In this document: positions 26,014 through 54,859 of the stretch, in pieces | Layout of the letters: each line of letters opens with the position of its first letter | Position numbering within the stretch: the stretch's first letter is position 1 | From: Candidatus Cloacimonadales bacterium | Lineage (GTDB): Bacteria > Cloacimonadota > Cloacimonadia > Cloacimonadales > JAIOQZ01 | Length of the DNA stretch: 64,000 bases | Assembly (NCBI GenBank): GCA_963662655.2 | Contig: CAXXTU010000002.1 | Coordinates: 3,136,001 to 3,200,000, forward strand | Direction: 5' to 3' | The notes under the pieces: model-generated | Told to the model about the DNA's origin: nothing | The model's input: the letters and a program-made list of their open reading frames with translations, nothing else | Databases searched by the model: none | Translations under genes and position numbers: made by a program

Positions 26014-26033
26014 GTTTTCTCAATTTTCATGCG

Positions 26034-31207: not shown

Positions 31208-31589
31208 GTAATCCCCATTCCGTCGTAATACGATTTCCCGATCGAAGAATCCAAATGAAAATCGGTTATACGGGAAATCGGTTCCAGATAACCATTTCCG
31301 CATTCCCTATCACTCTGATATATGAATCATCAAAGCGGAAATGGCATTTATGATCATGCTAACCTGATTTTGACGTTGTCATAACAAGATAATTTATATT
31401 TGCATGGTGTGCAAACAATTAAACAATTTCCACTTCGAAATTTTACAGATTCATATTCCAGGGATTGTGGAAATCGCTCTCCTAGACGATATTCCGATGG
31501 ATCATTTTACAGACTACGGCCATTCATCCGGAAGATCGTAAAAAATCTTCGCCAGGTTCGTAACGCTGCCGACTTGCGAACAGTGTTGC

Positions 31590-32033
31590 CTACTCCTCGG
31601 TATCCTCCTGAGCAGCCTTGATGTGGATCGTCATCTTTTCCTTATCAAGAACGAAGCTGGCGGCATCGTACTTCGGCGGGCCGAACCCGGGCCGAGCGTT
31701 GTTGGAGAAGTAAACGGGTTCCTGGGGAACCCCCATGAAGTTGGCGTCCAGTTCACCGTTTCCGTTCACATCGTGAATGATTGCCACCGCGTAAGTGCCG
31801 AAGGGTATCTCGCCGAAGCAGACCATCATGGAATCCTGCGTCACAGGCTTGATGATCCCGCTGTAACGCGTTTCATCGTTTCCAGGGAAGCCTTCCGGGC
31901 CGTTGTGCAGCGACAGCATGAGTTTACCTTCTACGGGGTAGAGCCCCGTAATTTCGACGCTCAGAGCGCCCATTTGTGCGTTCATACATGATATGCACAA
32001 GAGAACGAATCCAAAGAGTATCACTTTTATCAT
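31590..32033 (-). CDS. DUF2141 domain protein
   Basis: YAVAIIHDVNGNGELDANFMGVPQEPVYFSNNARPGFGPPKY signature. Confidence 0.88.
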   Translation of the reverse strand: MIKVILFGFVLLCISCMNAQMGALSVEITGLYPVEGKLMLSLHNGPEGFPGNDETRYSGIIKPVTQDSMMVCFGEIPFGTYAVAIIHDVNGNGELDANFMGVPQEPVYFSNNARPGFGPPKYDAASFVLDKEKMTIHIKAAQEDTEE

Positions 32034-32046
32034 TGATTACCTCATT

Positions 32047-32074
32047 AAAACAGAAGCCCCATTGCTGGGGCTTC
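32047..32074 (-). terminator. Probable terminator after the PorP-like gene
   Basis: Minus strand GAAGCCCCA-gcaa-TGGGGCTTC followed by TGTTTT. Confidence 0.65.
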
Positions 32075-32111
32075 CGCATATTATTCTTCTATTCCCATGT
32101 TACCGGGATGA

Positions 32112-33803
32112 TTATTCGTTATCCTTTTTCTGACGCTTCGCTGCGATGATGAACATGATGATCACGCCAACAATCGCCAGCGCGATGAGCAGATACCACC
32201 ACCACGCCATGCCCGGTTCTTCTTCTACCTGTACCGGCTCAACGATTTCCACGATCTCTTCAGGTTCTTCGACGACCGGTTCTTCGACCACCACGGGTTC
32301 CTCGACCACCTTCTTCACAACAGGTCTTGGCCTTGGTTTCGGCTTGACGGGCTCAGGTTCGGGTTCAGGTTCCACAACCACTTCCGGTTCGTAAACCGCG
32401 CCCTTGAAGAGCGAGCTCGTTCCCTCGATGTTCCTTCCGGCGTCTACGATGCGAAGCTGATATTCATACTGGTTCTCTTCGTCGTCCGGCATCAGCTCCA
32501 TGACGTCCCACGTGTATTCGTAGGATTTATCCAGGCCTTCCTGCGCAATCGCGCCCGTGATCGGCTGGGTGTTCAGGCTGGCCTTTTCGATGCCGTTTTC
32601 GTAGAGATAGATGCTGAATTCAGGTTCTTCGATCGTGGATGTCCATGCGAGCGTCACCTTGTCCTCGTTCCATACCGTGTCCGGTAGAGCCGCGATCCGG
32701 ATTTCACGGAGGCGTCTGAGGATGTTGACCTGATCTTTCACCGGTTCACCCATCGCGCCGGCAACTTCCAGCGTTACCAGGTTGTCGCCAGGATTAAGAT
32801 CGAAGTTCTCCACGAAATGCTTGCCGTCGTACTCGCGAACGTTGTTGCGAATCAGGATTGGGCTTCCGTTCACGAACACGCGCACGTAGTCGTAACGCTT
32901 CTGGCCTTCCACGTGGAAATCGACCCGTTCCTTCTCCGCGAGCGTCTCGAAGTGACCTTCCTCCCAGCGGTTATCCGTGAAGATGATGCTGGGGGTCTCG
33001 GACGACTGCGGAGCGTAAGTCACGAACACACCGTAGTTGGTGCTGTTGATCTCGTCCTCGTAGTAGTAGTCGTAGTTGAACATTACATCCCAGTAGTTCA
33101 GCGTGTTGATCTCCGGAGCGATGGACACCTTTTCCGCCGTGCTGGTGATGTTGGTGGTGAAGAACGGAGTCGGGAGGCTCACGCCAACCGAGATACCGTA
33201 GTAGTCTTCGTCATCCTCACGCATGTAGAACGCGCCAAGGTTGATATACTTCTTCACCTGCCAATCGACCTTCGCAAGCACCTTCATCGGGAGCTTCTCT
33301 TCGTAATCGGTGTTCGCCATGGATACGTCGGGGCGGTTCAGGTGGAACAGGCCCACGCCCACGTTGAGGCGATCGTCGAAGAAGTTGCCGTGCAGCGAGG
33401 CTCCGAATGTCGGAACCGTGATGCTGTAGTCTTCCAGGGTTTCCGCCTGACCGAAATCCAGTCCGCTCTGGCTGATATCGCGGTAGATGATACCTGCTGA
33501 GACAGCCGCGGTGAGGAAAGAGGTTACGCGGTACCCAGGACTGATGCTGAATACGTAGTTCTTGTATACGTCATCCTGAAGTCCCATCACGTCCGCTTCG
33601 ATAGTGAAGCGCTGATAGACGGGGACGTTGATCATCATACCCATCTCATCGAATCCGTCTTCGAAGTTCGAGAACGTCTTCTGATAATATGAGCTTAGCT
33701 TGAAATAATTTCCACTCATTTCAGAGGCTGGGATGAAACCGTCAAATGCAAGCAATGCTGCCAGGATCGCGACGAATGTAAGGGCTATAATCGTTCGTTT
33801 CAT
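32112..33803 (-). CDS. PorP/SprF-like beta-barrel protein extended by Ig-like domains, a Pro/Glu spacer and a C-terminal TM helix
   Basis: Signal peptide; amphipathic strands with GVGLFHLNRPDVS (PorP/SprF-like motif); EPEPEPEPVKPKPRP spacer; WWWYLLIALAIVGVIIMFIIAA followed by KRQKK. Lies directly downstream of a type-B CTD gene. Confidence 0.7.
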   Translation of the reverse strand: MKRTIIALTFVAILAALLAFDGFIPASEMSGNYFKLSSYYQKTFSNFEDGFDEMGMMINVPVYQRFTIEADVMGLQDDVYKNYVFSISPGYRVTSFLTAAVSAGIIYRDISQSGLDFGQAETLEDYSITVPTFGASLHGNFFDDRLNVGVGLFHLNRPDVSMANTDYEEKLPMKVLAKVDWQVKKYINLGAFYMREDDEDYYGISVGVSLPTPFFTTNITSTAEKVSIAPEINTLNYWDVMFNYDYYYEDEINSTNYGVFVTYAPQSSETPSIIFTDNRWEEGHFETLAEKERVDFHVEGQKRYDYVRVFVNGSPILIRNNVREYDGKHFVENFDLNPGDNLVTLEVAGAMGEPVKDQVNILRRLREIRIAALPDTVWNEDKVTLAWTSTIEEPEFSIYLYENGIEKASLNTQPITGAIAQEGLDKSYEYTWDVMELMPDDEENQYEYQLRIVDAGRNIEGTSSLFKGAVYEPEVVVEPEPEPEPVKPKPRPRPVVKKVVEEPVVVEEPVVEEPEEIVEIVEPVQVEEEPGMAWWWYLLIALAIVGVIIMFIIAAKRQKKDNE

Positions 33804-33814
33804 CTTGCACCTCC

Positions 33815-36800
33815 TTACCGTACTAAGTAAATTTTGCCACGTTTATCGATACTGCCATTCTTACGTAGTACGTAGATGTACGGGCCACTGCCGCACTTAC
33901 GTCCTCCGTCATCCTTACCGTCCCAGCTGAGGGTCATTCCGGTACCATCGTAGGTTCCGTTCACCTCGCGAACGCGTTTTCCGTGCAGATCGTAAATATT
34001 CATCTTCGCTTCGACATTACCGCTGTTCACCAGCCTTACCGTGTAGATATCGTTCAGACCGTCGCCGTTCGGTGTGAAGGCGTTGGGCTGCGGCTCGATG
34101 GAGTTACCGCGAACCGATATATTCACGTCGGTCTCATCCACGCCGTTGTGGACAATCTCGATCTCTCCAGTGTATACCTTGCGGGTACTCGGCGAGAACC
34201 TGGCATAGATGTCCTCGCTGCCCTGGTATGGGATGGTCATGCTCAGGGTCTCGACCCAGCCTCCATCCGTTCCGTGTCTTATCTGGAACCCGGGCGGGGC
34301 TCCAATCTCGGTCACCTCGAGCTCGTAGTTTCCAGTGTTTGTTATGGTGAACATCTGCGGTGCGGAATCCTCTCCTGCATATACGTCGCCGAAGTTCATC
34401 GAGGTCATATCCACCGCGATGTTCGGCAGCGGCGTCGCCACGATGGCGCGGATCAGAAGATCGCCATTCGGAATGACGCCCCAGCCGGATCCGGCTTCCA
34501 CGTAGCTGTGTCCGCTAACGGGATCGCTTGTATCGAAACCGACCTGATACGGATGCGAGGCATCCACCACAATGTGGAATCTCTCGCCGACGAATTCCAG
34601 GTCAGCGCCGGACGGAATATCCAGAATGTTCCAACCCAGATGTAAGTCGTTCACATCGTAGTTGAAGGTCTGGATGAAGTTGTCCGCGCTAGGTGTGTCG
34701 CCGTTACCGTAGATGTTGATCAACAGATCCTGCACATCGAGCGTATACAGATAGATCGCGAAACGAATCAGCGTGCTGGTCGGCGTGTAACGCTGGATCG
34801 GAGACAGATCGAACTGAACGCCGAACTCGTTGCCGAAGAGGTAGCCTTGTTCAGGAATACCATCGTCGTAGTACAGCGCGAATTCGGTCGGAGGCAGCGG
34901 ATAGACCGTTGCGACTTCCGAGGCGTACGATTCGCCCTGCCAGTCGATATGATCCGCTTCCAGAACTGCGGTTACCCGGTAGCAGTTCTGTACGCCGACA
35001 TTCGGTTCATCGTCGGTGAAATGGGTGACGTTTCCATCAACCTCGCCGATGAGCTCGTAATTGTCATCGTAATCGCCGGAGCGATACACGTTGTAACCCG
35101 TGAGCCACTTGGCGCTGACCGGAGCGCTCCAGGTCAGTTCCGAGGTTCCGTCGTTGAAAAGCGTCGGTATCAGGTTCTGCGGCGCGTCGTTCCGGTTGAT
35201 CACGGTAAAGGTGAATTCTTCATCGTCCATACCGGTATTGTTCTCCAGGTGCACCGTGATGTTATATACGTCTGTTTGTGTCGCGGAAGGCGTCCAGCTC
35301 ATCAGTCCGGTTGCCGGATCGATGGTCATGCCTTCCGGGGCATTCATCAGCGAGAAGGTTGCCGTCGGATAGATATACGCCGTCACCTGATATTCCCATG
35401 CGGTATCGATCAGGTAGACGACCTGGTCGTCGATCGGATCGATAACCGGCACATCGATGATATTTTCAACGGTAATCACTACAGATTGCTGTGCGACCTC
35501 GCCGTCGTTGTCTTCCGCGTAGAAGGTGATGGTCTCGACGCCGTACCAGTCGGTTTCAGGATCCAGCGAAACAACGCCGTCCTGGATTCCGACCATGATG
35601 TGCGAGTTACCGCTGTAGCTGAAGGTCAGTGCGTCGCCGTGGATCAGATCGTCGTCACCGAACATCGCGTTCATGTCGAGCGAAGTATCGATAGCATTCT
35701 CCGGAATCGTGAGGCTATCGACAACCACCGCCACGTATGGTGCGTCGTTGACATTGGCAACTACGATGGTGAACGGCTGCTGCGCCGTATCGCGCAGGTT
35801 CATCGTTTTCTTGATAGTCTTGCGGTCGATTCCGTCGTCCACAACCAGCACGACTTCGTTGTCTCCTACGTTATCGTTGGTCGGCGTACCTTCCAGCGTT
35901 GCGTTGAAGTTGTCGGTTTGGGTCAGCGTCAGCCATTCCGGGCCGCTCTGCATCGTGATGGTCAGAACAGGATTCGGATCGTCGTCATTGCAGATGACGC
36001 TGTAGCTATACTGCTCGTCTTCGTTCACCGCGAGAATCGGATCCGAGGTGAAGTACGGAGCGTCGTTGGTGTTGAGCACTTCGATTTCGAAGATATCGTT
36101 CACGCTGGCCCCGTCCTCGTCTGTTGCCGTCACCATGATCATGTAGGTGCCGATATCGTCGTTCGTCGGCGTACCCGAGAATGTACGGGTCGCGCCATCG
36201 AAGCTCAACCACGCTGGAAGACCATCCTCGTCTACCTCGCCGGCAGTATAGGTCAGTACATCACCGTGGATGAGATCGTCGTCGTCGAACGTGTTTTCCG
36301 GGAAGGCATAGCTGTAAGCCTCATCTTCGTCGGTCGTCTGATCAGGGATCGGATTCAGGACAACCGGTGCGTCGTTGACGTTCGCAACGACAATGGTGAA
36401 CGACTGGATATCGAGCGTCGTCCCATCGTGCACTTCCAGCACGACCGCGTTGTCACCGACGTTCTCGTTGAGCGGTGTTCCGGTGATGTTGCCGGTACCG
36501 TCTCCGTTGTCGGTGAGCGTCAGCCAGAGCGGAAGTGTTGTGGCGATGATACTCAGGTCGTCGTTCGGATCGTCGTCCGTCGCCGTGATGTCATAGGTGT
36601 ATTCCACATCTTCTGTCGCGGTTGTGACCGGCGTGGATGTGAATTCCGGTGCGTCGTTGGTGTTGTCCACCGTCAGGACGAAGATATCCGATACGGACTC
36701 GCTCAGGTTATCGGTTGCGGTAACCTCGATGCTGTACTGTCCCAGATCGTCGTTCGTCGGTGTTCCACTGAACGTTCTCGAGACGTCGTTGAAGGTCAGC

Positions 36801-39800
36801 CATGCGGGAAGTGGATTGCCACCTTCGAGCAACGCGCTGTAGGTGAGTTCGTCACCGTGGATCAGATCGTCGTCGTCGAACGTGTTTTCCGGGAACGTAT
36901 AGCTGTAAGCCTCATCTTCGTCGGTCGTCTGATCCGCGATGGGGTTCATCACGTACGGAGCGTCGTTGGTGTTGGTCACCTCGATGTCGAACGTCTGGTA
37001 AGCCACCACTCGTACGCCGTCGCTTACGGTCAGGGTGACCGCGTTGGTTCCGACGTGCTCGTTGAGCGGGGTACCGGCGATGTTGCCGGTGCCGTCGCCG
37101 TTATCGGTGAGCGTCAGCCATGCGGGAAGCACGTCCGCGCCGAGAACCAGCGTTGCGCCCGGATCGTCGTCCGTCGCCGTGATGTTATAGGTGTATTCCA
37201 CATCCTCCGTCGCGGTCGTAACCGGCGTGGATGTGAAGTATGGGTCGTCCTGAGTATTGCTTACGACAATCTCGAAGTCGTCGAAGGCTGTCAGGTCGCC
37301 ATTGTCGGTTGCTGTCAGGCGGATGAACCAGGTTCCGTTGTCCTCGTTGGCAGGCGTTCCGCTGTAGGTGCGGGTCGCGCTATCGAAGGTCAACCACGCG
37401 GGAAGCGGCGAACCGTCTTGCAGTGCGGAGGTGTAGCTCAGCATGTCGCCGTAGACGATGTCGTCGTCACCGAAGGTATCGTCGGCAAACGTGAAGCTGA
37501 ACGGGGTATCCTCTGTCGCAGCCTGATCCGCGATGGGGTTCATCACGTACGGAGCGTCGTTGGTGTTGGTCACCTCGATGTCGAACGTCTGGTAAGCCAC
37601 CACTCGTACGCCGTCGCTTACGGTCAGGGTGACCGCGTTGGTTCCGACGTGCTCGTTGAGCGGGGTACCGGCGATGTTGCCGGTGCCGTCGCCGTTATCG
37701 GTGAGCGTCAGCCATGCGGGAAGTACATCCGCGCCGAGAACCAGCGTTGCGCCCGGATCGTTGTCCGTCGCCGTGATGTTATAGGTGTATTCCACATCCT
37801 CTGTGGCGGTCGTAACCGGCGTGGAAGTGAAGTATGGATCGTCCTGAGTATTGCTTACGACAATCTCGAAGTCGTCGAAGGCTGTCAGGTCGCCATTGTC
37901 GGTTGCTGTCAGGCGGATGAACCAGGTTCCGTTGTCCTCGTTGGCAGGCGTACCGCTGTAGGTGCGGGTCGCGCTATCGAAGGCAAGCCATGCGGGAAGC
38001 GGCGAACCGTCTTGCAGTGCGGAGGTGTAGCTCAGCATGTCGCCGTAGACGATGTCGTCGTCACCGAAGGTATCGTTGGCAAACGTGAAGCTGAACGGGG
38101 TATCCTCGGTCGCAGCCTGATCTGGGATGGGGTTCATCACGTACGGAGCGTCGTTGGTGTTCGCTACTTCAATATCGAACGTCTGGTAAGCCACCACTCG
38201 TACGCCGTCGCTTACGGTCAGGGTGACCGCGTTGGTTCCGACGTGCTCGTTGAGCGGGGTACCGGCGATGTTGCCGGTGCCGTCGCCGTTATCGGTGAGC
38301 GTCAGCCATGCAGGAAGCACGTCCGCGCCGAGAACCAGCGTTGCGCCCGGATCGTCGTCCGTCGCCGTGATGTTATAGGTGTATTCCACATCCTCTGTGG
38401 CGGTCGTAACCGGCGTGGATGTGAAGTATGGATCGTCCTGAGCGTTGCTTACGACAATCTCGAAGTCGTCGAAGGCTGTCAGGTCGCCATTGTCGGTTGC
38501 TGTCAGGCGGATGAACCAGGTTCCGTTGTCCTCGTTGGCAGGCGTTCCGCTGTAGGTGCGGGTCGCGCTATCGAAGGTCAACCACGCGGGAAGCGGCGAA
38601 CCATCTTGCAGTGCGGAGGTGTAGCTCAGCATGTCGCCGTAGACGATGTCGTCGTCACCGAAGGTATCGTCGGCAAACGTGAAGCTGAACGGGGTATCCT
38701 CTGTCGCAGCCTGATCTGGGATGGGGTTTATCACGTACGGAGCGTCGTTGGTGTTCGCTACTTCAATATCGAACGTCTGGTAAGCCACCACTCGTACGCC
38801 GTCGCTTACGGTCAGGGTGACCGCGTTGGTTCCGACGTGCTCGTTGAGCGGGGTACCGGCGATGTTGCCGGTGCCGTCGCCGTTATCGGTGAGCGTCAGC
38901 CATGCAGGAAGCACGTCCGCGCCGAGAACCAGCGTTGCGCCCGGATCGTCGTCCGTCGCCGTGATGTTATAGGTGTATTCCACATCCTCTGTGGCGGTCG
39001 TAACCGGCGTGGATGTGAAGTATGGATCGTCCTGAGCGTTGCTTACGACAATCTCGAAGTCGTCGAAGGCTGTCAGGTCGCCATTGTCGGTTGCTGTCAG
39101 GCGGATGAACCAGGTTCCGTTGTCCTCGTTGGCAGGCGTTCCGCTGTAGGTGCGGGTCGCGCTATCGAAGGTCAACCACGCGGGAAGCGGCGAACCATCT
39201 TGCAGTGCGGAGGTGTAGCTCAGCATGTCGCCGTAGACGATGTCGTCGTCACCGAAGGTATCGTCGGCAAACGTGAAGCTGAACGGGGTATCCTCTGTCG
39301 CAGCCTGATCCGCGATGGGGTTCATCACGTACGGAGCGTCGTTGGTGTTCGTGATCTCGATCTGGAAGACTCCTTCCGCAGTCTCCATTGCGATGTCTGT
39401 CGCCACGATCTTCACGTTGATAATGCCGATATCTTCGCTGAGCGGTGTCCCACTGTAGGTCCGAGTGACCGGATCGAACGCCAGCCACGCAGGAAGCGGT
39501 GTTCCGTCTTCAAGTGTCGATGAATAGGTCAGCACGTCGCCGTAGATCAGGTCATCGTCCTCGAAGGTGTTCTCCGGTACGATGTACTCGAAGAGGGCGT
39601 CTTCCGGCGCGATTTGATTCGGAACAGCGTTGGTGTAAACCGGCGCGTCGTTGGTGTTGGCCACCGTGATGGTGAAGCTCTGGATAACCGGATCGTTGTT
39701 GTTGTCCGTAACCGAGATTTCCACCGGGTTTTCGCCGACATTCGCGTTGAGAGGCGTTCCGCTAAGAGTGGCCGTACTATCGCCGTTATCGGTGAGGGCC

Positions 39801-45800: not shown

Positions 45801-48800
45801 ACGTTGTACTGATACAATACATCTTCGGTGGCCGTGGTAACCGGCAAAGACGTGAAGGACGGTGCAACGTTCGTTTCGATGACCTGAAGGATGAAATCAT
45901 CCCAAACGGTTCCGGCTTGCTGGTCGTTGGCAACGACTCTGATCGAGTAAGAGCCGACTTCCGTCAAGCCAGGCAGGCCGTTGAAGTATCTTGCGTTCGG
46001 ATTGAAGCTCAACCAAGCTGGAAGCGGATTCCCGTCGGTCAGCATTGCTGCATATACCAGGGCGTCTCCGTAGATTGTATCGTCGTCGGCAAACGTATTC
46101 TCCGGGAATACATAGGCGAACTCTTCATTGATCAGGATAGCTTGATCCGGTATTGGCTGATTCACATACGGCAAATCGTTGGTGTTCGTCACATTGATTG
46201 TGAATGCCTGTGTTCCCAGAACGCGGGTTCCGTCATTCACGGTGAGAACCACATTGTGGGCGCCGACGTTTTCATTCAGAGGCGTTCCTTCGAGCAGGGC
46301 GGTGCCGTCTCCATGATCTGTCAGCGTGAGCCAGGATGGAGCTTGAGGCGCTGAAATGACAAGAAGCGCTCCAGGATCGGTATCCTCGGTTACAATGTTG
46401 TACTGATAGAGGAAATCTTCCGTCGCGTTTGTGACGGGAGAAGATGTAAAGTATGGGCTGTCGCCGTTATTGATGACTTCCAGATGGAAGGTGTCTTCGG
46501 CAAATGCTGATTCGATGTCTGTCGCGATAACGACGATATCGAGGTCGACAACGTCGAGGTCGCCCGGAGTACCGCTGAAGGTGCGGGTAACATCGTTGAA
46601 TGACAGCCAGGCCGGAAGCGGAGAATTATCGGAGAGCTTCGTGCTGTAACTCAGTTCGTCACCCCAAACGAGGTCTTCGTCGTCGAAGGTGTTGTCGGCA
46701 AATGTATAGGTGAAGAACTCGTCTTCGGTTGCCGTCTGGTCGGGAATCGGGTTCGCGACGTACGGCGCACCGTTCACGTTGGTGACAGATATGGAGAATA
46801 TCTGATGGACCGGATCGGCGATACCATCCGAGACCACGATGTCCAGGTTGTTCGATCCAACGTTTTCGTTATCGGGCGTTCCGCTCAATGTCGCGGTTCC
46901 GTCTCCGTGGTTGACCAGCGAAAGCCATTCGGGAATCTCCACGGCGAGGAATGCCAGGCCGAAGTTTTGTCCGTCGTCGCTGGCTGTTACCAGGTATGAG
47001 TAAAGGACATCCTCCGTTGCGGTAGTGACTGGTGTCGATGTGAAAACGGGCGGGTCGTTCGATTCGATAACCGCGAGAGAGAAGTCGTCGGAAACGCTCT
47101 CGAGCTGCGTGTCACGAACGAATACCCGGATGTCGTAGGTTGTGCCGATCAGTTCCAGAGGAGCAACGCCGTTGAAGGTATGCGTCTCGGGATCGAATGT
47201 GAGCCATGTCGGAAGCGCGTCGCCATTTGTCTGGCGTGCGGCGTATGTCAGAATATCGCCAAACGGAAGGTCGTCATCCCCGAAAGTCGTTTCCGGGATG
47301 GTGAAGTTGTACAGCGTATTGGCGATTGCCGCCTGATCCATGAGAGGATTCTCCACGTATGGCGGTGTATTGACGTTGAGTACCTGCAACTGGAATTCGT
47401 CCGTCGCGGTCAGTCCGGCAATGTCGGATGCGATTACGCGAATGGTGTAGGTACCAACGTGGTTGTTCATCGGGATACCGCTGAAGGTTCTTTGTGACGG
47501 AATGAAGCTGAGCCAGCCCGGCAGCGGGTCTCCGTTCGAGAGTTCCGCGACGTATGTCAGCTGGTCGCCGTAGATGATGTCGTCGTCGGTGAAAGTGTCT
47601 TCATCGAAGGTGAACGAATAGGCTGCGCTTTCGTAGGTGACGTGATTCGGGATCGGGTTCACCACAACGGGACCGTCGTTTGTGTTCACTACGGTGACAG
47701 CGAAACTCTGCTCGACAGCCGGTGAGATTCCGTCGCTGAGCGTGAGGGTCACGTCCCATACACCGATCATCGAGTTGTCCGGCGTTCCGGTAAGATCGGC
47801 TGTCCCGTCCCCGTTGTCGTTCAACGTAAGCCATTCAGGGATTACCGGAGCCTGAAGGACGATTCCGCCTTCATTCACGCCGTCGTCGGATGTTTTGACG
47901 TTGTACAAGTACAGCGCATCTTCGAAGGTGGAAAGTAACGGACTGGATGTAAACTCCGGCGGGTAGTTCGAGGGAACGATTTCGAGAACGAACTCGTCTG
48001 TTGCGAACGCGCCTTCGATGTCCGTGGCCTTCACAACGATATCGTATTGTCCGATATCCTCGACTGCTGGCGTTCCGCTGAATGTAACGGTCGGAGCGTC
48101 GAAGCTCAGCCATCCCGGCAATGGAAGTTCGCCTGTGAGGCTCGCGCTGTATGTGAGTGCGTCACCCGTATCGATGTCGTTGAAGGTTCCTTCCGGGATT
48201 GTGTAACTGTACGCGATATCAACCCGAGATATCTGATCCGCGATCGGATTCACCAGAACCGGTGCATCGTTCACGTTCTGAACCTCGATGGTAAAGCTTT
48301 GCTCAACCGGATCTGCGATGTGATCCCACGCGGTGAGCCTTACATCGAATGTGCCGATCTCGTCGTTGGTTGGCGTTCCGGTAAGCGAGGCGTTTCCGTT
48401 GCCCAGGTTCGAGAACGTCAGCCATTCTGGAAGTTCGGGCGCTTCGAGCGTCAGGCCGAAATTCACGCCGTCGTCCTCAACCGTGATGTTGTATATATAA
48501 GGTATATCCTGTGTCGCGTCCGTGACGGGAGTGGATGTAAACTCCGGTGCGAAGTTGGATGCGAAAACAACAATATTGAAATGATCTTCTGCTGACTCCA
48601 GCGCAGCATCGGATGCTGTGAGAAGAATCGGATAGCTTGTTCCCGATTCGATGCCTGCTGGTGTTCCGTAGAAGCGCCGGTCGGATCCATCGAAGGACAT
48701 CCAGGCCGGAAGCGGAGAACCGCCTTCGAGGGTGGCCGTGTAGTTCATGAAGTCGCCGGGGTCCGGATCGTTGAAGGTATCTTCTGGGAAGATGTATTCG

Positions 48801-51800
48801 AACGGTGTATCCGTGAATGCGGCCTGATCCGGGATCGGATTAACCAGTTCGGGCGAGTCGTTGAAGTTGTTGATAACCAGGTTGAAGTCGTTATATACCG
48901 ATTCCCCTGCGATATCCGTGGCTGTCAGCCGGATGGAGTATGTCCCGGTGTCGTAGTCCGAAGGCAATCCGGAGAAGAGTCTCTGGCTTGAAGTGAAGGT
49001 CAGCCATTCGGGAAGTGGATTCCCGTCGCTAAGCGTTGCAGAGTATGTAAGGATGTCTCCGTAAGGGATATCCGGGTCTGTGAATGTGTTGGATGGGAAC
49101 GTGTAGTTGAACAAAACGTCTTCCCAACCGATGACCATTGAAATCGGATGAAGAAGGTAAGGTCCGTCGTTCACGTTCTCGACCGTGAGCGTGAAGATGT
49201 CCGTTCCGGTCGCTCCTTCGATGTCCGTGGCGATCACGGCAATACTGTACTCGCCGACATTAGAGTTCGCCGGCGTACCGGTGAATGTTCTCGTTCCCGG
49301 CTCGAAGCTCAACCATGCCGGAAGGGGAGAGGCGTCCGCGAGCTTGGCGCTGTAAGTAAGAGCGTCCACGGCGTCGATATCCTCGAACACGTCTTCGGTG
49401 AACGAGAACTGGAAGTAAACGTCCTGCGTCGCCGTCTGATCGGCAATCGGATTAACCACCTGCGGTGCGTTGTTCACGTTGGCCACGAGGATGGAGAATT
49501 CCTGCGAAACTTCCTGCGCGATGTTATCGCTGAGTGTAAGGATCACGGGATTCTCACCGACGTTGTCGTTTCCGGGCGTACCCTCGAGGAGAGCGGTACC
49601 GTCGCCGTTGTCCGTCAGCGTAAGCCACTCGGGAACGGTCGTTCCGGCAATGGTGAAACCATCGTCGATTCCGTCGTCGCTCGAGGTGATATTGTAGGTG
49701 TAAAGCACATCTTCCGTTGCGTCTTCCGATGGGGTGGAAGTAAACTGCGGCTGCTGATTCGTGGGAATCACGGTCAGGATGAAGTCGTCGAACGCTTCTT
49801 CGTTCGAGTTGTCCCGAACCGTCACGCGGATTTCGTACGTATCCACATCGTCGAGCGCGGGTTGGAAGGTGAAGTATTTCGATTCGGCGTTGAACGCGAT
49901 CCATGCCGCGAGCGGATTGCCGTCACTGAGTGCGGCAGAGTAGGTCAACTCGTCGCCCCAGATGATGTCGTCGTCGACAAACGCGTCGTCCGCGAGGTAG
50001 TAATCGATGGTGGTGTTTGCCGCGACGGTTCTGTTCGGGATTGGATTCGCGACAACCGGCGCATCGTTAACGTTCGCCACCTGAATCGTGAATTCCTGAG
50101 TTGAGATAACGCGAACGCCGTCGCTGACCGTGAGGGCAACCTGGTTTTCTCCGACGTTTGCATTCAGCGGAGTTCCTTGCAGGACTCCCGTGTTGTCGCC
50201 ATTGTCGTCGAGCGTCAACCACCCGGGCAGCACGGTGGCGTCAATCGCGAGGATTGCGTCGGGATCGTCGTCCGCCACGGTGATATTATATGTGTAAGGT
50301 GAATCTTCCGTACCCTGAAGAACCGGAGAGGATATGAAGTACGGATCGTCCTGCGTATTCTGTATCTCGATAGTGAATACCGAAGAGACGCTTTCCGATT
50401 GATTGTCGGTGGCGGTCACCTTGACCTGGATATTCTCGGGAACGGTCGGCGTTCCGGAGAAGGTCTCGGTCTCATCGTCGAAAGCTAGCCACGCCGGAAG
50501 CGGTGAATCGTCTTCAAGGGAAGCTGAAAGGATGAGCGCGTCTCCCCAGATGATGTCGTCGTCTTCAAACGTGTTCGCGGGAATCGTATAACTGAATGCC
50601 TGATCCTCGGTGGCGATCTGATTCGGAATCGGATTCGCGATATAAGGCGCATCGTTGGTGTTTGCGATCACGATTGCGAACTCGTCGGAAACGGATTCGT
50701 CCGAACGGTCCCTTGCCGTAACCCGGATGTCGTAGGTTCCCACCTCCGCGTTGGTCGCGGTACCGCTGAAATTGCGCGATGCAGGCGTGAATGTCAGCCA
50801 CCCTGGAAGGGGGGCGTCCGAAACGAGCGTCGCACTGTAGAACAGTGTGTCTCCCACGCCCACGTTCGCATCGAAGAAGGTGTCGCTGTTGAAGGTGAAC
50901 GTGAATGGCGTGTCCTCAAGACCGTTCTGGTTCGGAATCGGATTGGCCAGCACAGGTGGTTGATTGAGATAGCGCACCTCGAACTGGAACAAGTCTGTGG
51001 CGGAGGTGTTCGAGCTGTCGGTGGCTGTTACCTGTATCTCGAATATCTCGATATCCGATGCTTGCGGAGTACCCGAGAACGTACGAGTGGCCTGGTTGAA
51101 GGAGAGCCACGTCGGCAAGTTCTGCAGGTCGCCATCGACGTATTTCCGGGCAGTGTATGTCAGGTAATCGCCGTGGATGATGTCGTCATCGGTGAAAGTA
51201 TTTTCCGGGAACGTGAAGCTGTAGGCATCTGCTTCAGTAGTAACCTGATCTTCAATCGGGTTTGCCAGAACCGGAATGTCGTTCACGTTCTCGACTTCCA
51301 GCCTGAAGGTATCTACGGCGGTAGCAAAGGCCGTATCGGTCGCGGTTACCGCGATTTGATAGATACCAACGTCTTCGTTGAGCGGGATGCCATTGAACGT
51401 TCTGAGCTCGGGCGTGAAGTTCATCCAGGAAGGAAGGTCGACGATCGTATCGGTGGAATCGACCATTCCGGCGCTGTACAGGAGGATATCCCGAACAGGC
51501 TGGTTGTCCGGATCGCTGAATACGTTCGCGCTGAATGTAAATGTGTAGGGTAAATCTTCTGTGGCATGGTGATCGAGAATGGGGTTCAGAACGACGGGGC
51601 CGTCGTTCGAGTTCAGCACTTCGATCTGGAACACGACGGAAGCCGTGAGACCTGCCGCATCCTCGATGATGACCTTGATGCGGTGGATACCCCGATCGTC
51701 ATTCGTGGGTGTGCCCGAGAAGGTTCTTGTGTTGCTGTCGAATGACAACCATAGCGGGAGCGGTATTTCCCTTCCGCTGCTGTCCTGCACGGCGCTGTAC

Positions 51801-54800
51801 GTGAACGTATCGCCATAAGGCGTGTCCGGGTCACCGAATACGGAATCGGAGAAGGTGAATTCGAAGAGCTGATCCTCGTTAGCCAACTGGTTTGGTATCG
51901 GATTCAAGACGTAGGGAGGATCGTTCGTGTTCGCGATATTGATATCGAAGACATCCTCCGCGGTCAATCCCGGAACGTCCGTAACGATCGCCTTCACTGA
52001 AAGCGTACCGACGTTCTCGTTGCGTGGAATACCCGTGAATGTTTTCGTGTTCGGATCGAAATTCAGCCAATTCGGCAGGGGGGAATCGTTCGCCTGACGA
52101 GCGCTGTAGGTGAGAATATCGCCTTCGGCAATGTTTTCGTCGTCGAATGTTCCGTCAGGGATCGCGAAGCTGAATCCGCTGTCTTCGGTGGCGTTCTGAT
52201 CGTCAAGCGGCGTTGCTACGAATGGAGCGATGTTGATCCATGTAACCCAAAGCCTGAATACATCCGACGCAGCTTGCCCCGAGATGTCCTCGGCCTCGAC
52301 GCGGATAAAAATCTGGCCAATGTTCACATGAACCGGTGTTCCTGAGAAAGTCCGGGTTCCCGGATCGAAGCTCAGCCACGCGGGAAGCGGTGACAAATCG
52401 GAAAGGGTTGCGCTATAGGTGAGGTTATCGCCCGGGTCGTCGTCCGCAAAGATGGTGTCCGGCACCGTGTATTGGTACAGGTCCTGTTCCTGCGTGATCT
52501 GATCAGGAATCTCGTTGAGGACGTACGGAGCGTCATTCGTGTTGATAACCGTTATTGTGAACGTATCGATTACCGTCTCGGCGCTGAGGTCGGTTGCTGT
52601 CAGTGCGATGCTGTAAACAGCGATGTCCTCATTCGCTGGAGTTCCGGTGAATCTTCTGCTGAGGGGCACGAAGTTCAACCAGGCGGGGAGTTCCGATCCA
52701 TCCGATTGCTCGGCAGAGTAGCTGAGCGACTCATTCGGGTCCGGATCGAAGAATGTGTTTTCTGGGAATACGTAGTCGAGCAGGGTGTCCTCGTTGACAT
52801 TCACATTGCCAATCGGGTTGAGAACCTCCGGAGGATCGTTTACATTGATAACCTCGATGTTGAATGTTTGCGGTACCGGGTCGGCAATGTCGTCGCGAAT
52901 GGTGATCGCCACTTCGTTGAGGCCGATGTACTCGTTGGTAGGATAACCCGAAAGCGTGGCGGTGCCATCGCCATGGTCTGTCAGCGACAGCCATGCTGGA
53001 AGAGTTGGGCTTGCGTAATGAAGGCCGCAGACACTGATGGTGTCGTCGATTGCGGTAACATTGTATTGATAGAGTTCGTCCTCGTTCACCGTTAGGGGCG
53101 GCTCAGATGTGAAAACCGGGGGATCGTTCGTCAACGCGAAATAGAGTTTTCTCTCGATATTCACTCCGGTACCCTGTCCGGTGAAGCCCTGGTCGTTCAT
53201 GATCACGGTCATCGTTTCCATGCCTTCCACATCAGGGTCGGAGTAGTAATAGAAGTCTTTGAGATAGTTGTTCATGTTAGTTTGGCTAACAACGATAACA
53301 ACGTTGTTCGTGCCATCGCCGGAGATGAATCTCGAACCACCGTCAACGCTGAGAATACCCTTTGTCACGCTGATGTTCAAGATGAGCTGGTTCGATGCAA
53401 TATCGGGATCCCAAACTCTGATCGAATCGGCGGCGGTGAAATGGTAATTCAGGTTTTCATCGACATCGAGCGGAACATAAAGGCAGCTATCGACCTTTGT
53501 CGATCCGTGGAAAAGCTCTGGGGTGTCGTTGATGTCCTGTACTTTGATCTGAGCAATGTCGCTTGCCACGCTAAACGCCGTGGTATCGCCTACAGCGACG
53601 ACATTGTAGGTTTGACCGGCGTTACCAGCGCTTCTGTCCCAGGCGCGGAAACGTAAGTTGGCGTAACCGTTGTAGTTGACCATCGGAACGAAACGGATTC
53701 GATGTGTGCCCAGCGTACCATCAAGCAAAGGAGCAGCGCTTGAAATATCTACCAGGTCATTATCGATCGCGGTGAAATCGTCCCAGGTTATACCGTTGTT
53801 CGTGGAATATTGCCAATTACCGTAGGTGTTGTCCACTTCGATAACGGCGATGGCCTTTACCGTATTGCCATCCGGATCGTAAATCGCGCCGTTTTCGACG
53901 ATGTTTTCAATGAGGTTTCCGGGGTTGTCGTAGTCATCTTCAGGGATGCTTGTCAACACGGCGTTGTAGCTTGGATAAAGGATCGGAGCATCGTTAACGG
54001 GTTCTATATAGAAACTCAGGTTTCGATAAACATCATTACCGCCACCCTGACCGGTATTACCCTGGTCGTTGATTCTGATAACCAGTGTGTCGGGTCCCGA
54101 AACGTTCTGGTTGGGGTGAAGGGTAAAGCTGTCGAGGTAATCGTTGATCTGGTTGATCGTCGAAACGATGGTCACGTTGCTCGTGCCATTACCCGAGATA
54201 AAGCGGCTCATCCCCCGGTCAATGGTTAACGTGCAGTAGCTCGTCATCATGTTCAGGATAACTGGAGTATCAATATCATCTTTGTTTAGAATATCAACAT
54301 CGTCAATTCTGATTGAATCTGCGGGAGTAAAGGTGTAGAATCCATCTTCAAACACTGTAATATTAAGATCGATGGTTCCGGTTATCTCCGTTCCGTCCAT
54401 GAATAACTGAGGGTCGTCGTTCACGGCGGTAACATTGAAAGTGAACTGATATTCGCCGCTGAACTCGGTTGCGGAATCCATAACCTGGAAGTTGAATGAA
54501 GAGTATGCAGTGCCGTTTCCGTTGATTTCAGGAGTGTATTTCAATAAATTCAGCGCTGGAACGTCAACGGGATAGGGAACAGAGCCGGCCCCAATGGTAA
54601 ATCCCATGTAAGTAATCGTTCCGTGGTCCGGAATCGATGTGAGCCTGACGGCAAGAAATTCGTTCCCATCCGAGTCGTTGAAGGGAAAGTCTGATTCCGA
54701 GAAGGTCCAGACCGAATCTTCCAGAATTGTCTTCGTTACATTCGCACTTGTTGGTGCACTACGGTGCAAAGTGTCTCTCGATTGAGCCGCAATCGAGGTG

Positions 54801-54859
54801 CTTAACGCCGTAAAGATGATCAAGAGTGTGATCACAAATAAAACCCTTGAGTTTCTCAT
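33815..54859 (-). CDS. Giant (7014 aa) cadherin-like/He_PIG Ig-repeat adhesin with a gliding-motility-type (CHU_C, type B) CTD
   Basis: Signal peptide; roughly 55-60 ~100-aa repeats of two types (LPxWLxF...RTFSGTP and PxWLTLTDNGDGT) with NxND linkers; FN3- and ASH-like domains; C-terminal PNAFTPNGDGLND...WDGKD...GPYIYVL...IYLVR. Confidence 0.92.
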   Translation of the reverse strand: MRNSRVLFVITLLIIFTALSTSIAAQSRDTLHRSAPTSANVTKTILEDSVWTFSESDFPFNDSDGNEFLAVRLTSIPDHGTITYMGFTIGAGSVPYPVDVPALNLLKYTPEINGNGTAYSSFNFQVMDSATEFSGEYQFTFNVTAVNDDPQLFMDGTEITGTIDLNITVFEDGFYTFTPADSIRIDDVDILNKDDIDTPVILNMMTSYCTLTIDRGMSRFISGNGTSNVTIVSTINQINDYLDSFTLHPNQNVSGPDTLVIRINDQGNTGQGGGNDVYRNLSFYIEPVNDAPILYPSYNAVLTSIPEDDYDNPGNLIENIVENGAIYDPDGNTVKAIAVIEVDNTYGNWQYSTNNGITWDDFTAIDNDLVDISSAAPLLDGTLGTHRIRFVPMVNYNGYANLRFRAWDRSAGNAGQTYNVVAVGDTTAFSVASDIAQIKVQDINDTPELFHGSTKVDSCLYVPLDVDENLNYHFTAADSIRVWDPDIASNQLILNISVTKGILSVDGGSRFISGDGTNNVVIVVSQTNMNNYLKDFYYYSDPDVEGMETMTVIMNDQGFTGQGTGVNIERKLYFALTNDPPVFTSEPPLTVNEDELYQYNVTAIDDTISVCGLHYASPTLPAWLSLTDHGDGTATLSGYPTNEYIGLNEVAITIRDDIADPVPQTFNIEVINVNDPPEVLNPIGNVNVNEDTLLDYVFPENTFFDPDPNESLSYSAEQSDGSELPAWLNFVPLSRRFTGTPANEDIAVYSIALTATDLSAETVIDTFTITVINTNDAPYVLNEIPDQITQEQDLYQYTVPDTIFADDDPGDNLTYSATLSDLSPLPAWLSFDPGTRTFSGTPVHVNIGQIFIRVEAEDISGQAASDVFRLWVTWINIAPFVATPLDDQNATEDSGFSFAIPDGTFDDENIAEGDILTYSARQANDSPLPNWLNFDPNTKTFTGIPRNENVGTLSVKAIVTDVPGLTAEDVFDINIANTNDPPYVLNPIPNQLANEDQLFEFTFSDSVFGDPDTPYGDTFTYSAVQDSSGREIPLPLWLSFDSNTRTFSGTPTNDDRGIHRIKVIIEDAAGLTASVVFQIEVLNSNDGPVVLNPILDHHATEDLPYTFTFSANVFSDPDNQPVRDILLYSAGMVDSTDTIVDLPSWMNFTPELRTFNGIPLNEDVGIYQIAVTATDTAFATAVDTFRLEVENVNDIPVLANPIEDQVTTEADAYSFTFPENTFTDDDIIHGDYLTYTARKYVDGDLQNLPTWLSFNQATRTFSGTPQASDIEIFEIQVTATDSSNTSATDLFQFEVRYLNQPPVLANPIPNQNGLEDTPFTFTFNSDTFFDANVGVGDTLFYSATLVSDAPLPGWLTFTPASRNFSGTATNAEVGTYDIRVTARDRSDESVSDEFAIVIANTNDAPYIANPIPNQIATEDQAFSYTIPANTFEDDDIIWGDALILSASLEDDSPLPAWLAFDDETETFSGTPTVPENIQVKVTATDNQSESVSSVFTIEIQNTQDDPYFISSPVLQGTEDSPYTYNITVADDDPDAILAIDATVLPGWLTLDDNGDNTGVLQGTPLNANVGENQVALTVSDGVRVISTQEFTIQVANVNDAPVVANPIPNRTVAANTTIDYYLADDAFVDDDIIWGDELTYSAALSDGNPLAAWIAFNAESKYFTFQPALDDVDTYEIRVTVRDNSNEEAFDDFILTVIPTNQQPQFTSTPSEDATEDVLYTYNITSSDDGIDDGFTIAGTTVPEWLTLTDNGDGTALLEGTPGNDNVGENPVILTLSDNIAQEVSQEFSILVANVNNAPQVVNPIADQTATQDVYFQFSFTEDVFEDIDAVDALTYSAKLADASPLPAWLSFEPGTRTFTGTPANSNVGEYSIAVIATDIEGATGTDIFTLTVENVNDGPYLLHPISMVIGWEDVLFNYTFPSNTFTDPDIPYGDILTYSATLSDGNPLPEWLTFTSSQRLFSGLPSDYDTGTYSIRLTATDIAGESVYNDFNLVINNFNDSPELVNPIPDQAAFTDTPFEYIFPEDTFNDPDPGDFMNYTATLEGGSPLPAWMSFDGSDRRFYGTPAGIESGTSYPILLTASDAALESAEDHFNIVVFASNFAPEFTSTPVTDATQDIPYIYNITVEDDGVNFGLTLEAPELPEWLTFSNLGNGNASLTGTPTNDEIGTFDVRLTAWDHIADPVEQSFTIEVQNVNDAPVLVNPIADQISRVDIAYSYTIPEGTFNDIDTGDALTYSASLTGELPLPGWLSFDAPTVTFSGTPAVEDIGQYDIVVKATDIEGAFATDEFVLEIVPSNYPPEFTSSPLLSTFEDALYLYNVKTSDDGVNEGGIVLQAPVIPEWLTLNDNGDGTADLTGTPDNSMIGVWDVTLTLSDGISPAVEQSFAVTVVNTNDGPVVVNPIPNHVTYESAAYSFTFDEDTFTDDDIIYGDQLTYVAELSNGDPLPGWLSFIPSQRTFSGIPMNNHVGTYTIRVIASDIAGLTATDEFQLQVLNVNTPPYVENPLMDQAAIANTLYNFTIPETTFGDDDLPFGDILTYAARQTNGDALPTWLTFDPETHTFNGVAPLELIGTTYDIRVFVRDTQLESVSDDFSLAVIESNDPPVFTSTPVTTATEDVLYSYLVTASDDGQNFGLAFLAVEIPEWLSLVNHGDGTATLSGTPDNENVGSNNLDIVVSDGIADPVHQIFSISVTNVNGAPYVANPIPDQTATEDEFFTYTFADNTFDDEDLVWGDELSYSTKLSDNSPLPAWLSFNDVTRTFSGTPGDLDVVDLDIVVIATDIESAFAEDTFHLEVINNGDSPYFTSSPVTNATEDFLYQYNIVTEDTDPGALLVISAPQAPSWLTLTDHGDGTALLEGTPLNENVGAHNVVLTVNDGTRVLGTQAFTINVTNTNDLPYVNQPIPDQAILINEEFAYVFPENTFADDDTIYGDALVYAAMLTDGNPLPAWLSFNPNARYFNGLPGLTEVGSYSIRVVANDQQAGTVWDDFILQVIETNVAPSFTSLPVTTATEDVLYQYNVTTADDGVNMGITISAPQVPAWLAITDNGDGTATLFGTPANEDVGTHNVVLNVSDGIAAPVAQLFSIVVENVNTPPVLVNSIPDQAALVGQAFNYSIPENTFADFDADDVLTYEAIITSGGSWTHTWLIFYPAQRRFYGLPSAVDIGSYTIRVTVTDTGMESAFDIFTLSVYAEDVPPVFTSLPITQAYENIEYTYNVTTTDDGIDLGITIEAPTLPSWLTFTDNEDGTGLLRGTPTTSDIGTHDVVLTVTDNILPSIDQSFSIEVLDVNQPPVLVNPIPNQTTVAEQLYQYTVPENTFEDPDEASVLTWNAMLANGEPLPEWLTFNPETRVIQGTPAVADAGTHNIMIIVTDDGGMMADDDYLLRIFAENQPPVFTSSPVTEINVDELYLYNITTSDDVNNFGGLVITAETVPSWLALYDNEDGTATLTGTPTDEFVGSNGVVLSVSDGISAPVEQAFDINVSAINHPPYVANPLIDQVAVAGSFFSYTFADDTFVDPDQGDVLSYEITTVDDSPMPVWLLIDEAGRTLSGTPQLVDTGIIPIRVKATDIQGEEANDEFNLRVIGSNDAPEFTSTPVTNATQDSRYTYEISATDDAYSLDGLVFSTNALPEWLTFNDLGNGMAVLAGIPSNADVGQSEITILVSDGLASQVEQTFQLTVHNINDAPIVVNPNPDQRAVIGQFYQYQANLDTFDDPDIPYGDHLTYTSKLIDGSNLPRWLVFDPVSMLYRGSPSILDARLFSILLIATDDSLATAVDQFDIVVRAGNEAPEFASVPPTEILQGETYSYDIVTTDDNNNAGLTIIGGVVPEWLALVDNGDGTGVLSGVPGNDNVGAHEVVLYVSDGIIRDATSQQFTITVHNMNDAPYIANPIPDMTTTAGELYDYTIPGGTFADPDIMYGDHLAYDATLETGSPLPEWLTFNAETLAFSGTPQIGNSGNYSIKVTVTDDSLASVSDVFVLEVYYGNLPPQFTSTPVTEVNEDATYLYNITTMDDGVGFGVHITATALPGWLTLTDNGDGTAVLAGVPKNGDVGEHEIVLQANDNVRVIEEQSFTITVYNTNDAPYLIEPISDVGIRQGIALNYEIPSGTFGDDDLIWGDEIVWSAKLADGSFLPAWLDFDIDTHTFSGTPDIMDVGIYDMRVTVTDLMNASAFDDFVLTVYGNNVPPVFVSVPDTTATEDVHYSYEIETQDDGYNEFINITAVQIPGWLTLTDNGDGTGLLAGTPTNDAVGSSEIILRVDDGIRQSTDQAFTLTVINVNDAPYVANQIPDRGAVIEMLFEYAVPENTFADDDIIHGDVLTYSADQADGSALPAWLAFNPVTKTFSGTASLSDIGIYNIRVTVMDTSFRTASDIFIIRVVHENDGPVFTSMPELTADEGTLYSYSITVTDDGTNLGINISAPVLPDWLSLVDNGDGTATLSGIPTWQYIGANPVTLNAEDGIEPIPTEQSFSIEVRDVNTPPYVQNPIPDQNAVQDAAFFYTIPEDTFGDLDADDILTYSAIISGNGPLPEWLSFDEETRAFSGTPTNDNVGSMMVDVTAMDMAGQTAISTFTLFVVNVNDAPYVTHLIPDHEIVELTSYSFTFRADTFSDPDIQWGDFLTYTAKLTDGSPLPEWLEFTPETRSFNGIPTHEDVGHYSIRVTATDSEGLAVFDDFILQVLDDPDAPFVVNPIPDQSAWEEVAFSYTFPENTFGDADYDNTLYYEATLSNGDALPEWLSFDDFARTFNGMPAQEDVGSYSIKVTATDIYLLSASDIFIITVYNANDLPYFTSVPDTIAQEASPYLYNIVTEDVDAMDSWTLTAPTLPSWLTLTDNGDGTGSLSGMPYQANIGDNPVVITVVDSTNIPVDQIFTIYVQNVVEPPVVSNPIPDQETYINILYDYTFPANTFTEPTPGDALTYTATLSDDSPLPAWLAFDAVTRNFSGTPSDLGTYQIKVTATDMDMQSVSDEYTLDVVFIQLPPAFTSTPVTDAIEDAIYTYNITASDINGESLVFAEVNVPSWLALTDNGDSTATLSGTPLNANVGENPVEISVTDNNNDPVIQSFTITVANTNDAPVYTNAVPNQIAPEDALFEYIVPENTFEDDDLIYGDVLTYSSTLEDGTPLPAWLAFDPVTRTYSGTPLSEDIGIINVKIVATDIAMETAEGVFQIEITNTNDAPYVMNPIADQAATEDTPFSFTFADDTFGDDDIVYGDMLSYTSALQDGSPLPAWLTFDSATRTYSGTPANEDNGTWFIRLTATDNGDLTAFDDFEIVVSNAQDDPYFTSTPVTTATEDVEYTYNITATDDDPGATLVLGADVLPAWLTLTDNGDGTGNIAGTPLNEHVGTNAVTLTVSDGVRVVAYQTFDIEVANTNDAPYVINPIPDQAATEDTPFSFTFADDTFGDDDIVYGDMLSYTSALQDGSPLPAWLTFDSATRTYSGTPANEDNGTWFIRLTATDNGDLTAFDDFEIVVSNAQDDPYFTSTPVTTATEDVEYTYNITATDDDPGATLVLGADVLPAWLTLTDNGDGTGNIAGTPLNEHVGTNAVTLTVSDGVRVVAYQTFDIEVANTNDAPYVMNPIPDQAATEDTPFSFTFANDTFGDDDIVYGDMLSYTSALQDGSPLPAWLAFDSATRTYSGTPANEDNGTWFIRLTATDNGDLTAFDDFEIVVSNTQDDPYFTSTPVTTATEDVEYTYNITATDNDPGATLVLGADVLPAWLTLTDNGDGTGNIAGTPLNEHVGTNAVTLTVSDGVRVVAYQTFDIEVTNTNDAPYVMNPIADQAATEDTPFSFTFADDTFGDDDIVYGDMLSYTSALQDGSPLPAWLTFDSATRTYSGTPANEDNGTWFIRLTATDNGDLTAFDDFEIVVSNTQDDPYFTSTPVTTATEDVEYTYNITATDDDPGATLVLGADVLPAWLTLTDNGDGTGNIAGTPLNEHVGTNAVTLTVSDGVRVVAYQTFDIEVTNTNDAPYVMNPIADQTTDEDEAYSYTFPENTFDDDDLIHGDELTYSALLEGGNPLPAWLTFNDVSRTFSGTPTNDDLGQYSIEVTATDNLSESVSDIFVLTVDNTNDAPEFTSTPVTTATEDVEYTYDITATDDDPNDDLSIIATTLPLWLTLTDNGDGTGNITGTPLNENVGDNAVVLEVHDGTTLDIQSFTIVVANVNDAPVVLNPIPDQTTDEDEAYSYAFPENTFDDDDLIHGDVLTYTAGEVDEDGLPAWLSFDGATRTFSGTPTNDDIGTYMIMVTATDEDGASVNDIFEIEVLNTNDAPYFTSDPILAVNEDEQYSYSVICNDDDPNPVLTITMQSGPEWLTLTQTDNFNATLEGTPTNDNVGDNEVVLVVDDGIDRKTIKKTMNLRDTAQQPFTIVVANVNDAPYVAVVVDSLTIPENAIDTSLDMNAMFGDDDLIHGDALTFSYSGNSHIMVGIQDGVVSLDPETDWYGVETITFYAEDNDGEVAQQSVVITVENIIDVPVIDPIDDQVVYLIDTAWEYQVTAYIYPTATFSLMNAPEGMTIDPATGLMSWTPSATQTDVYNITVHLENNTGMDDEEFTFTVINRNDAPQNLIPTLFNDGTSELTWSAPVSAKWLTGYNVYRSGDYDDNYELIGEVDGNVTHFTDDEPNVGVQNCYRVTAVLEADHIDWQGESYASEVATVYPLPPTEFALYYDDGIPEQGYLFGNEFGVQFDLSPIQRYTPTSTLIRFAIYLYTLDVQDLLINIYGNGDTPSADNFIQTFNYDVNDLHLGWNILDIPSGADLEFVGERFHIVVDASHPYQVGFDTSDPVSGHSYVEAGSGWGVIPNGDLLIRAIVATPLPNIAVDMTSMNFGDVYAGEDSAPQMFTITNTGNYELEVTEIGAPPGFQIRHGTDGGWVETLSMTIPYQGSEDIYARFSPSTRKVYTGEIEIVHNGVDETDVNISVRGNSIEPQPNAFTPNGDGLNDIYTVRLVNSGNVEAKMNIYDLHGKRVREVNGTYDGTGMTLSWDGKDDGGRKCGSGPYIYVLRKNGSIDKRGKIYLVR
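36931..39349. repeat. Four near-identical 594-bp tandem repeats within the adhesin
   Basis: Anchor ggggtt(c/t)atcacgtacggagcgtcgttggtgtt recurs at 36941, 37535, 38129, 38723 and 39317 (period 594 bp = 198 aa). Confidence 0.95.

Follow-up and report, generated by a model that had tools for sequence, protein, structure and literature searches.

The window analysed here is a 64,000-nucleotide stretch of a 3.8 Mb genome (98.95% complete) of a Candidatus Cloacimonadales bacterium. Two ORFs on its minus strand are of concern: positions 33815-54859 encode a protein of 7014 aa and, after a gap of 11 bp, positions 32112-33803 encode one of 563 aa. The original prediction, which paired a giant adhesin with a barrel protein bearing its own membrane anchor, started from this arrangement, and both ORFs and the gap were found. 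The features of the locus are listed below.

33815..54859, minus strand: adhesin-like cargo of 7014 aa, with signal peptide, repeats and type-B CTD
36929..39361, minus strand: recent tandem expansion in the adhesin gene, 594-bp unit, copies 97-98% identical (self-BLAST)
33818..34099, minus strand: type-B T9SS C-terminal sorting domain (CTD), CHU_C and TIGR04131 above cut-offs
33747..33803, minus strand: carrier residues 1-19, a predicted Sec signal peptide without a lipobox cysteine (read from the sequence)
33003..33746, minus strand: outer-membrane barrel, 14-strand, with N-terminal plug (aa 20-267; AlphaFold2, structure search, TIGR03519 in relatives)
32712..33002, minus strand: Ig-like domain 1 (aa 268-364; model; all 26 full-length family members tested have it)
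32394..32705, minus strand: Ig-like domain 2 (aa 367-470; model)
32205..32393, minus strand: Pro/Glu/Val-rich spacer (aa 471-533; composition; pLDDT below 50)
32139..32204, minus strand: predicted single transmembrane helix (aa 534-555; best 19-aa hydropathy 3.0; helical in the model)
32112..32138, minus strand: basic tail KRQKKDNE and stop codon (sequence)
32050..32077, minus strand: terminator-like hairpin 3' of the carrier gene (-22.4 kcal/mol, z -4.85, 0 of 200 shuffles)

The hairpin is absent from the calls of the terminator scan, and the promoter and terminator scan of the region remained at chance level. Elsewhere in the window, three type-A CTD proteins lie in a row on the plus strand (21820-30020), one of them a gingipain-like C25 peptidase, and two further plus-strand genes (19242-21186) read like what we take to be flagellar FlhF and FlhG.

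The N-terminal part of the 7014-aa protein contains a signal peptide, as read from its sequence, and cadherin-like repeats. We counted 57 repeat motifs and about 55 He_PIG (dystroglycan-type cadherin-like) repeats, the latter in stretches of 28 and 25 in the middle of the protein with one more at each end. FN3-like and ASH/choice-of-anchor-D-like domains are also present, the FN3 and choice-of-anchor D matches lying under their cut-offs. It is the repeats that suggest a role as an adhesin. The predicted type-B CTD was borne out, with CHU_C (PF13585) scoring 45.2 bits against a cut-off of 27, and TIGR04131 scoring 35.6 in the whole protein and 40.6 in the isolated domain against a cut-off of 35. 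The motif PNAFTPNGDGLND had been taken for the end of the adhesin; it is present, but it opens the CTD about 90 aa earlier, and the real end reads ...RGKIYLVR. A motif scan of all ORFs of the genome returned one tail of this type versus 170 PNPFN-type tails. A search for sprA and porV, proposed as a check, found SprA (513.8 bits, cut-off 200), four PorV-family genes above the cut-off and PorU; SprA is likewise encoded in 11 of 11 related genomes. By its CTD, its signal peptide and the translocon encoded in the genome, the 7014-aa protein is, as far as sequence can tell, a true type-B T9SS cargo. Among relatives, cargo frames of 7026 and 6818 aa occur.

All elements originally noticed in the 563-aa protein, namely GVGLFHLNRPDVS, EPEPEPEPVKPKPRPRP, the VVEEP repeats, a helix of about 22 aa and the KRQKK tail, were found. 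The mature protein starts with F-[DE]-x-F-I-P-A, which is conserved in relatives. When the full-length protein was modelled by AlphaFold2 with 5 sequences, the barrel had a pLDDT below 50; this was resolved by modelling the barrel alone with a 28-sequence alignment, in which residues 20-267 take the form of a barrel of 14 strands, with a short plug at the N-terminus (pLDDT 88.4, pTM 0.81). The N-terminal region thus does model as a barrel. The Ig-like domains expected behind it were also recovered, as two beta-sandwich domains at residues 272-469 of the model. The spacer contains 19 E, 18 V and 14 P in 65 aa; the low pLDDT lends no backing to its description as rigid.

Members of the barrel family were found in 11 of 232 genomes of the phylum, in six families, with no second member in the genome of the window. 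Among 12 loci, the twelfth starts at a contig edge; in all 11 with upstream DNA, 9-12 bp separate the end of a type-B CTD (TIGR04131) gene from the barrel gene that follows, and the cargo bodies vary from 752 aa (G222) to about 7000 aa. A profile of the CTD subtype, built from those 11 barrel-paired genomes and scored on 22 candidates per genome, reached at least 114 bits in 12 of the 232 genomes (next best 60.5), and a barrel adjoins in 11 of them. The remaining genome, G225, has a type-B CTD gene with no barrel gene behind it; a non-coding stretch of about 750 bp, which contains a repeated block, follows instead. When barrel-only relatives of 135-438 aa were sought, a full scan yielded a single protein, of 239 aa and lacking a signal peptide, and an indexed search gave a LysM fragment only.

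What follows the barrel differs between relatives. Over 29 distinct sequences from the phylum genomes and from searches of protein databases, through which other phyla were covered, the tail is a membrane helix with a basic end in 9, LysM in 14, caspase-like in 5 (including P0016, assigned by Pfam) and absent in 1; P0018 (a 95-aa piece), P0019 (a piece of the G102 protein) and P0020 (an unrelated weak match) were left out of these counts. The fusion to a helix next to type-B CTD genes therefore recurs, as had been asked of the relatives, with the helix as one of three exchangeable tails, and helix and basic tail are kept in homologs at 34-82% identity. A tree of 28 barrels places the LysM forms in one well-supported group and the caspase forms in one weaker group; helix forms fall on both sides, and 2 changes are needed. 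This grouping implies few events, not 29.

Ig-like domain 2 occurs in all 9 helix forms (1-3 copies), in 0 of 13 LysM forms tested and in 2 of 4 caspase forms. The distance from barrel to anchor is 269-438 aa in the 9 helix forms versus 146-173 aa in the LysM forms. This contrast is suggestive only, since fully stretched LysM spacers could reach as far, and since the LysM forms are one clade it rests on about one event. Within the helix forms, more Ig domains go together with a shorter end spacer: two Ig with about 65 aa, three Ig with a charged helix and about 18 aa, or four Ig with about 22 aa. With 4-4.5 nm per Ig domain, 0.3 nm per extended residue and 0.15 nm per helical residue, all three layouts would span roughly 23-28 nm, near the width of the periplasm.

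LysM behind the same barrel shows that this position can take a wall anchor, which would put the C-terminus in the periplasm and marks a slot for an anchor. The slot is not always filled by an anchor, as the five caspase-like tails and the one sequence that ends at the barrel demonstrate. The caspase-tailed barrels (L103:2455-4962, L104:124-2355 and P0014-P0016) match Peptidase_C14 above the cut-off and have visible His-Gly and Cys motifs; their tail is possibly a periplasmic protease on a T9SS carrier. Right behind one LysM form, at L100:14133-19359 in G114, a CRISPR-like array with Cas9/Cas1/Cas2-like genes was noted by eye. There is also a second carrier-like clade, which consists of a barrel, a short stalk and TPR (L072 in G170, L073 in G174, L085 in G163, L096 in G118 and L098 in G113) and immediately follows a cadherin/Ig-repeat gene whose CTD is atypical. 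At 4 of its 5 loci a gene for a membrane protein comes next; the product, without a Pfam match in the two scanned, looks by eye like pieces of FliF/FliG. G113 holds both this clade and a LysM form.

We propose, with a probability of roughly 0.6, that the 563-aa protein serves the 7014-aa adhesin as its dedicated carrier and surface anchor, and that a C-terminal helix fixes it in the inner membrane, a single chain thereby joining both membranes. According to this model, adhesin and carrier would both be exported via Sec, as their signal peptides suggest. The carrier helix would stop in the inner membrane with KRQKK on the cytoplasmic side, and BAM would insert the predicted 14-strand barrel in the outer membrane while it is tethered; the strand count being even, both ends of the barrel would be periplasmic. 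The adhesin would then leave through SprA, for which the genome has a gene, and its uncut CTD would stay on the outer loops of the barrel in the way of PorP-PG1035 and SprF-SprB. The Ig domains and the spacer would cross the periplasm and hand the load to the inner membrane, and the outcome would be a static adhesin, not a gliding one. LysM forms of the same barrel would end at the wall, and the helix form would do the same job one layer deeper. The original claim that barrel, stalk and anchor form a single polypeptide across both membranes is supported by the barrel model and by the helix tail kept in relatives. The genes and their linkage, the exchange of tails, the lengths and the T9SS genes were observed directly, and fold and helix are predicted; we infer that the CTD would bind the barrel, that the chain would have this topology and that it would act as an anchor. 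It counts against a bridge of this kind that the tether would need to thread through the peptidoglycan, and in the literature we found no paper in which BAM folds a barrel whose own C-terminal helix ties it to the inner membrane.

The built-in inner-membrane anchor would replace PorE, the separate wall-binding lipoprotein of Bacteroidota. No PorE-like protein was found in the genome, where the sole OmpA-domain frame has 318 aa and matches neither propeller nor TPR models. In the five helix-form genomes all OmpA-domain frames measure at most 370 aa and are therefore too short for PorE, given as about 78 kDa in the accessible part of PMC9143113. Fused anchors do not exclude PorE, since G140 has a LysM form plus a PorE-like gene beside another barrel. 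There, at L108:238-3272, a PorV-like barrel gene is followed by the gene for a 663-aa PD40 and OmpA protein, as a PorE-like pair.

Several alternatives to a permanent inner-membrane anchor have to be weighed. First, the helix and basic tail could be a temporary hold or a sorting signal that is cut off, for instance by a rhomboid, leaving the cognate carrier in the outer membrane only. Helix-plus-basic ends are a common form of C-terminal sorting signals, which the tail resembles, and cleavage would remove the difficulty of folding a tethered barrel. The genome also encodes one rhomboid, whose identity as a rhombosortase is not implied. However, the tail could not be matched to any of the kinds compared (PEP-CTERM, GlyGly-CTERM, MYXO-CTERM and LPXTG): no CTERM model scored above its cut-off, the nearest being LPXTG with 14.6 against 15.9 in P0008, a protein that itself has no LPXTG motif. 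No motif before the helix is common to the 9 helix forms, and no common tag was seen by eye among the 15 C-terminal-helix ORFs of a hydropathy screen. No exosortase was found in the genome by a search that was positive in 3 of 14 control genomes. A stalk of kept length would, moreover, be needless if the tail were removed. The cleaved TM-plus-basic signal, which the original prediction had named as its own alternative, is thereby weakened, the rhomboid being what still speaks for it, and we consider it unlikely.

Secondly, the chain could span both membranes as an active coupling rod, resembling an inverted TonB, that engages an inner-membrane motor or sensor. Such a rod would pull the carrier-cargo pair off SprA or report load, in place of the GldKLMN energy chain. 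The EPEPEP...KPKP spacer resembles a TonB linker, and by eye ExbBD/TonB-like genes adjoin a PorV-family gene at another place in the genome. GldM was detected in 0 of 232 phylum genomes and GldN not in this genome, in both cases without a positive control, and GldK reaches at most 82.9 against a cut-off of 350. In Flavobacterium, release from SprA needs energy, according to the accessible part of PMC10994853. On the other hand, the 22-residue helix is free of charged or conserved polar residues, and the predicted cytoplasmic tail has 8 aa; no motor gene adjoins any of the 7 extended loci viewed. The LysM forms work without a helix, and about 170 type-A cargoes also need release and have no such rod. 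An active role is accordingly rather improbable.

Thirdly, the barrel may be a FadL-like channel or an envelope strut in the operon of the adhesin, and not its carrier. The barrel model matches FadL (3dwo_X) with a Z of 22.7, as high as PorV (6h3i_F; Z 21.1, rmsd 2.7 Å over 232 residues). For PDB 6h3i_F, 8gl6_F, 3dwo_X and 1t16_A together, Z is 21-23 and rmsd 2.7-2.8 Å over 232-241 residues, at 11-12% identity. Structure matches of this kind do not tell PorP from PorV or FadL. Solved PorP/SprF chains were absent from the lists, so PorV served for comparison. The window's own barrel gave 0 matches to Pfam or NCBIfam barrel models and is not among the 11 PorV (NF033709) matches in the genome, and the barrel profile gave 0 matches to PDB sequences. 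In the ESM Atlas, scores of 0.94-0.95 linked the barrel piece to unnamed clusters and to others with 12% PorP_SprF or 15% TraF_2, and the whole 563-aa protein scored at most 0.83, both being leads only.

The relatives argue against such a channel. TIGR03519 (PorP/SprF) matches the barrel pieces of 6 of 11 relatives over the whole barrel, with a best E of 1.6e-7, but no relative reaches its cut-off of 90.55 (best 37.0). One of 13 scanned, P0010 at full length, passes Pfam PorP_SprF (PF11751) with 23.4 against 22.3, whereas the 11 barrel pieces had no PorP match in Pfam. The barrel, furthermore, always stands directly behind a type-B CTD gene with a varying cargo body, and at 248 aa it lacks the large loops of FadL. 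A FadL-like channel or envelope strut in place of a carrier is thus a distinctly improbable reading. By sequence, fold and gene position the 563-aa protein is a remote PorP/SprF relative, and it is not a member by score. Of the PorP/SprF-like barrel first described, a modelled PorV/FadL-type barrel stands; the protein's own match to PF11751 or TIGR03519 does not, and kinship is remote and comes via relatives only. Finally, the uncultured source of the genome and the repeats in the adhesin gene might suggest an artefact of assembly or annotation, but this is hardly credible: the two-gene layout is the same in four other genomes and three further database proteins (identity down to about 34%), and positions 31500-36000 are covered without differences or joints by contigs from two runs on a single sample (possibly the source sample and hence not independent), contradicting an assembly join.

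The preferred reading, a carrier with its own inner-membrane anchor, can be compared with known systems. An OmpA-type barrel is also tied inward by a C-terminal domain of its own, but this binds and ends at the wall; a TonB-type protein spans the periplasm with a similar proline-rich, EP/KP-rich spacer, but has no barrel. PorV and FadL barrels share the predicted fold, and only the carrier described here adds a periplasmic stalk and an anchor. For P. gingivalis, the accessible part of PMC9143113 describes type-B PG1035 as remaining uncut at the surface, attached to PorP; PorP in turn binds PorE, a lipoprotein that binds the wall. For F. johnsoniae, PMC12618676 (likewise in part) proposes that cargo-carrier pairs whose genes accompany a PorE homologue are static; one such cargo was observed not to move. 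As far as these sources describe them, PorP-PorE-PG1035 and Fjoh_3952/3951/3950 resemble our locus in that a type-B cargo is found beside a PorP-like barrel thought to be held from the periplasm. They differ in that a barrel of about 33 kDa is combined with a separate PorE, whereas here barrel, stalk and anchor are one predicted chain; the anchor is a predicted membrane helix (LysM or caspase-like in relatives), in a genome with no PorE-like gene.

The SprB-SprF pair, as described in the accessible part of PMC12635249, likewise combines a cognate barrel with an adhesin that is several thousand residues long and carries a type-B CTD. SprF is, however, disulfide-bonded to the moving GldK track, while the mature carrier studied here contains 0 cysteines and therefore forms no SprF-type disulfide to a gliding track, and GldM and GldN were undetected (again without a positive control). 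Compared with SprB-SprF, a static anchor is more likely here than a gliding adhesin.

In the main texts within reach, which left out most subscription papers, we found no description of a fusion between a PorP/SprF-like barrel and a membrane helix or LysM, and the accessible part of PMC13721041 contains nothing on such a fusion. Nor did the literature yield a barrel and its own inner-membrane helix in one chain. A T9SS in Cloacimonadota has been suggested as possible (PMC11285876), and a CTD-bearing scaffold has been noted in one genus of the phylum (PMC8542988), both as judged from the accessible parts. The original prediction had announced a T9SS-like anchoring variant outside Bacteroidota; the anchor itself holds up, but in view of PMC11285876 its position outside Bacteroidota is less new.

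In conclusion, the conserved two-gene module is real and is probably a new form of type-B anchoring. That it amounts to a natural single-chain bridge between two membranes, which would hold an adhesin of about 0.75 MDa as one setting of a modular carrier family, in a phylum whose T9SS apparently lacks the GldKLMN motor, is a view to which we give an even chance. Type-B anchoring has only lately been worked out in two Bacteroidota, where it needs either a gliding track or a distinct lipoprotein that binds the wall. In this family the anchor sits on the carrier itself and is swapped among relatives; such gene fusions lend support to the static-anchor model, and the tail variants are ready-made chimeras with which that model may be probed. 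If the helix is kept, the carrier would be a natural test of whether BAM folds a barrel tied to the inner membrane. With SprA, PorV and PorU encoded in this genome and no GldM match in the phylum, the locus also bears on how type IX secretion is energised when GldM goes undetected.
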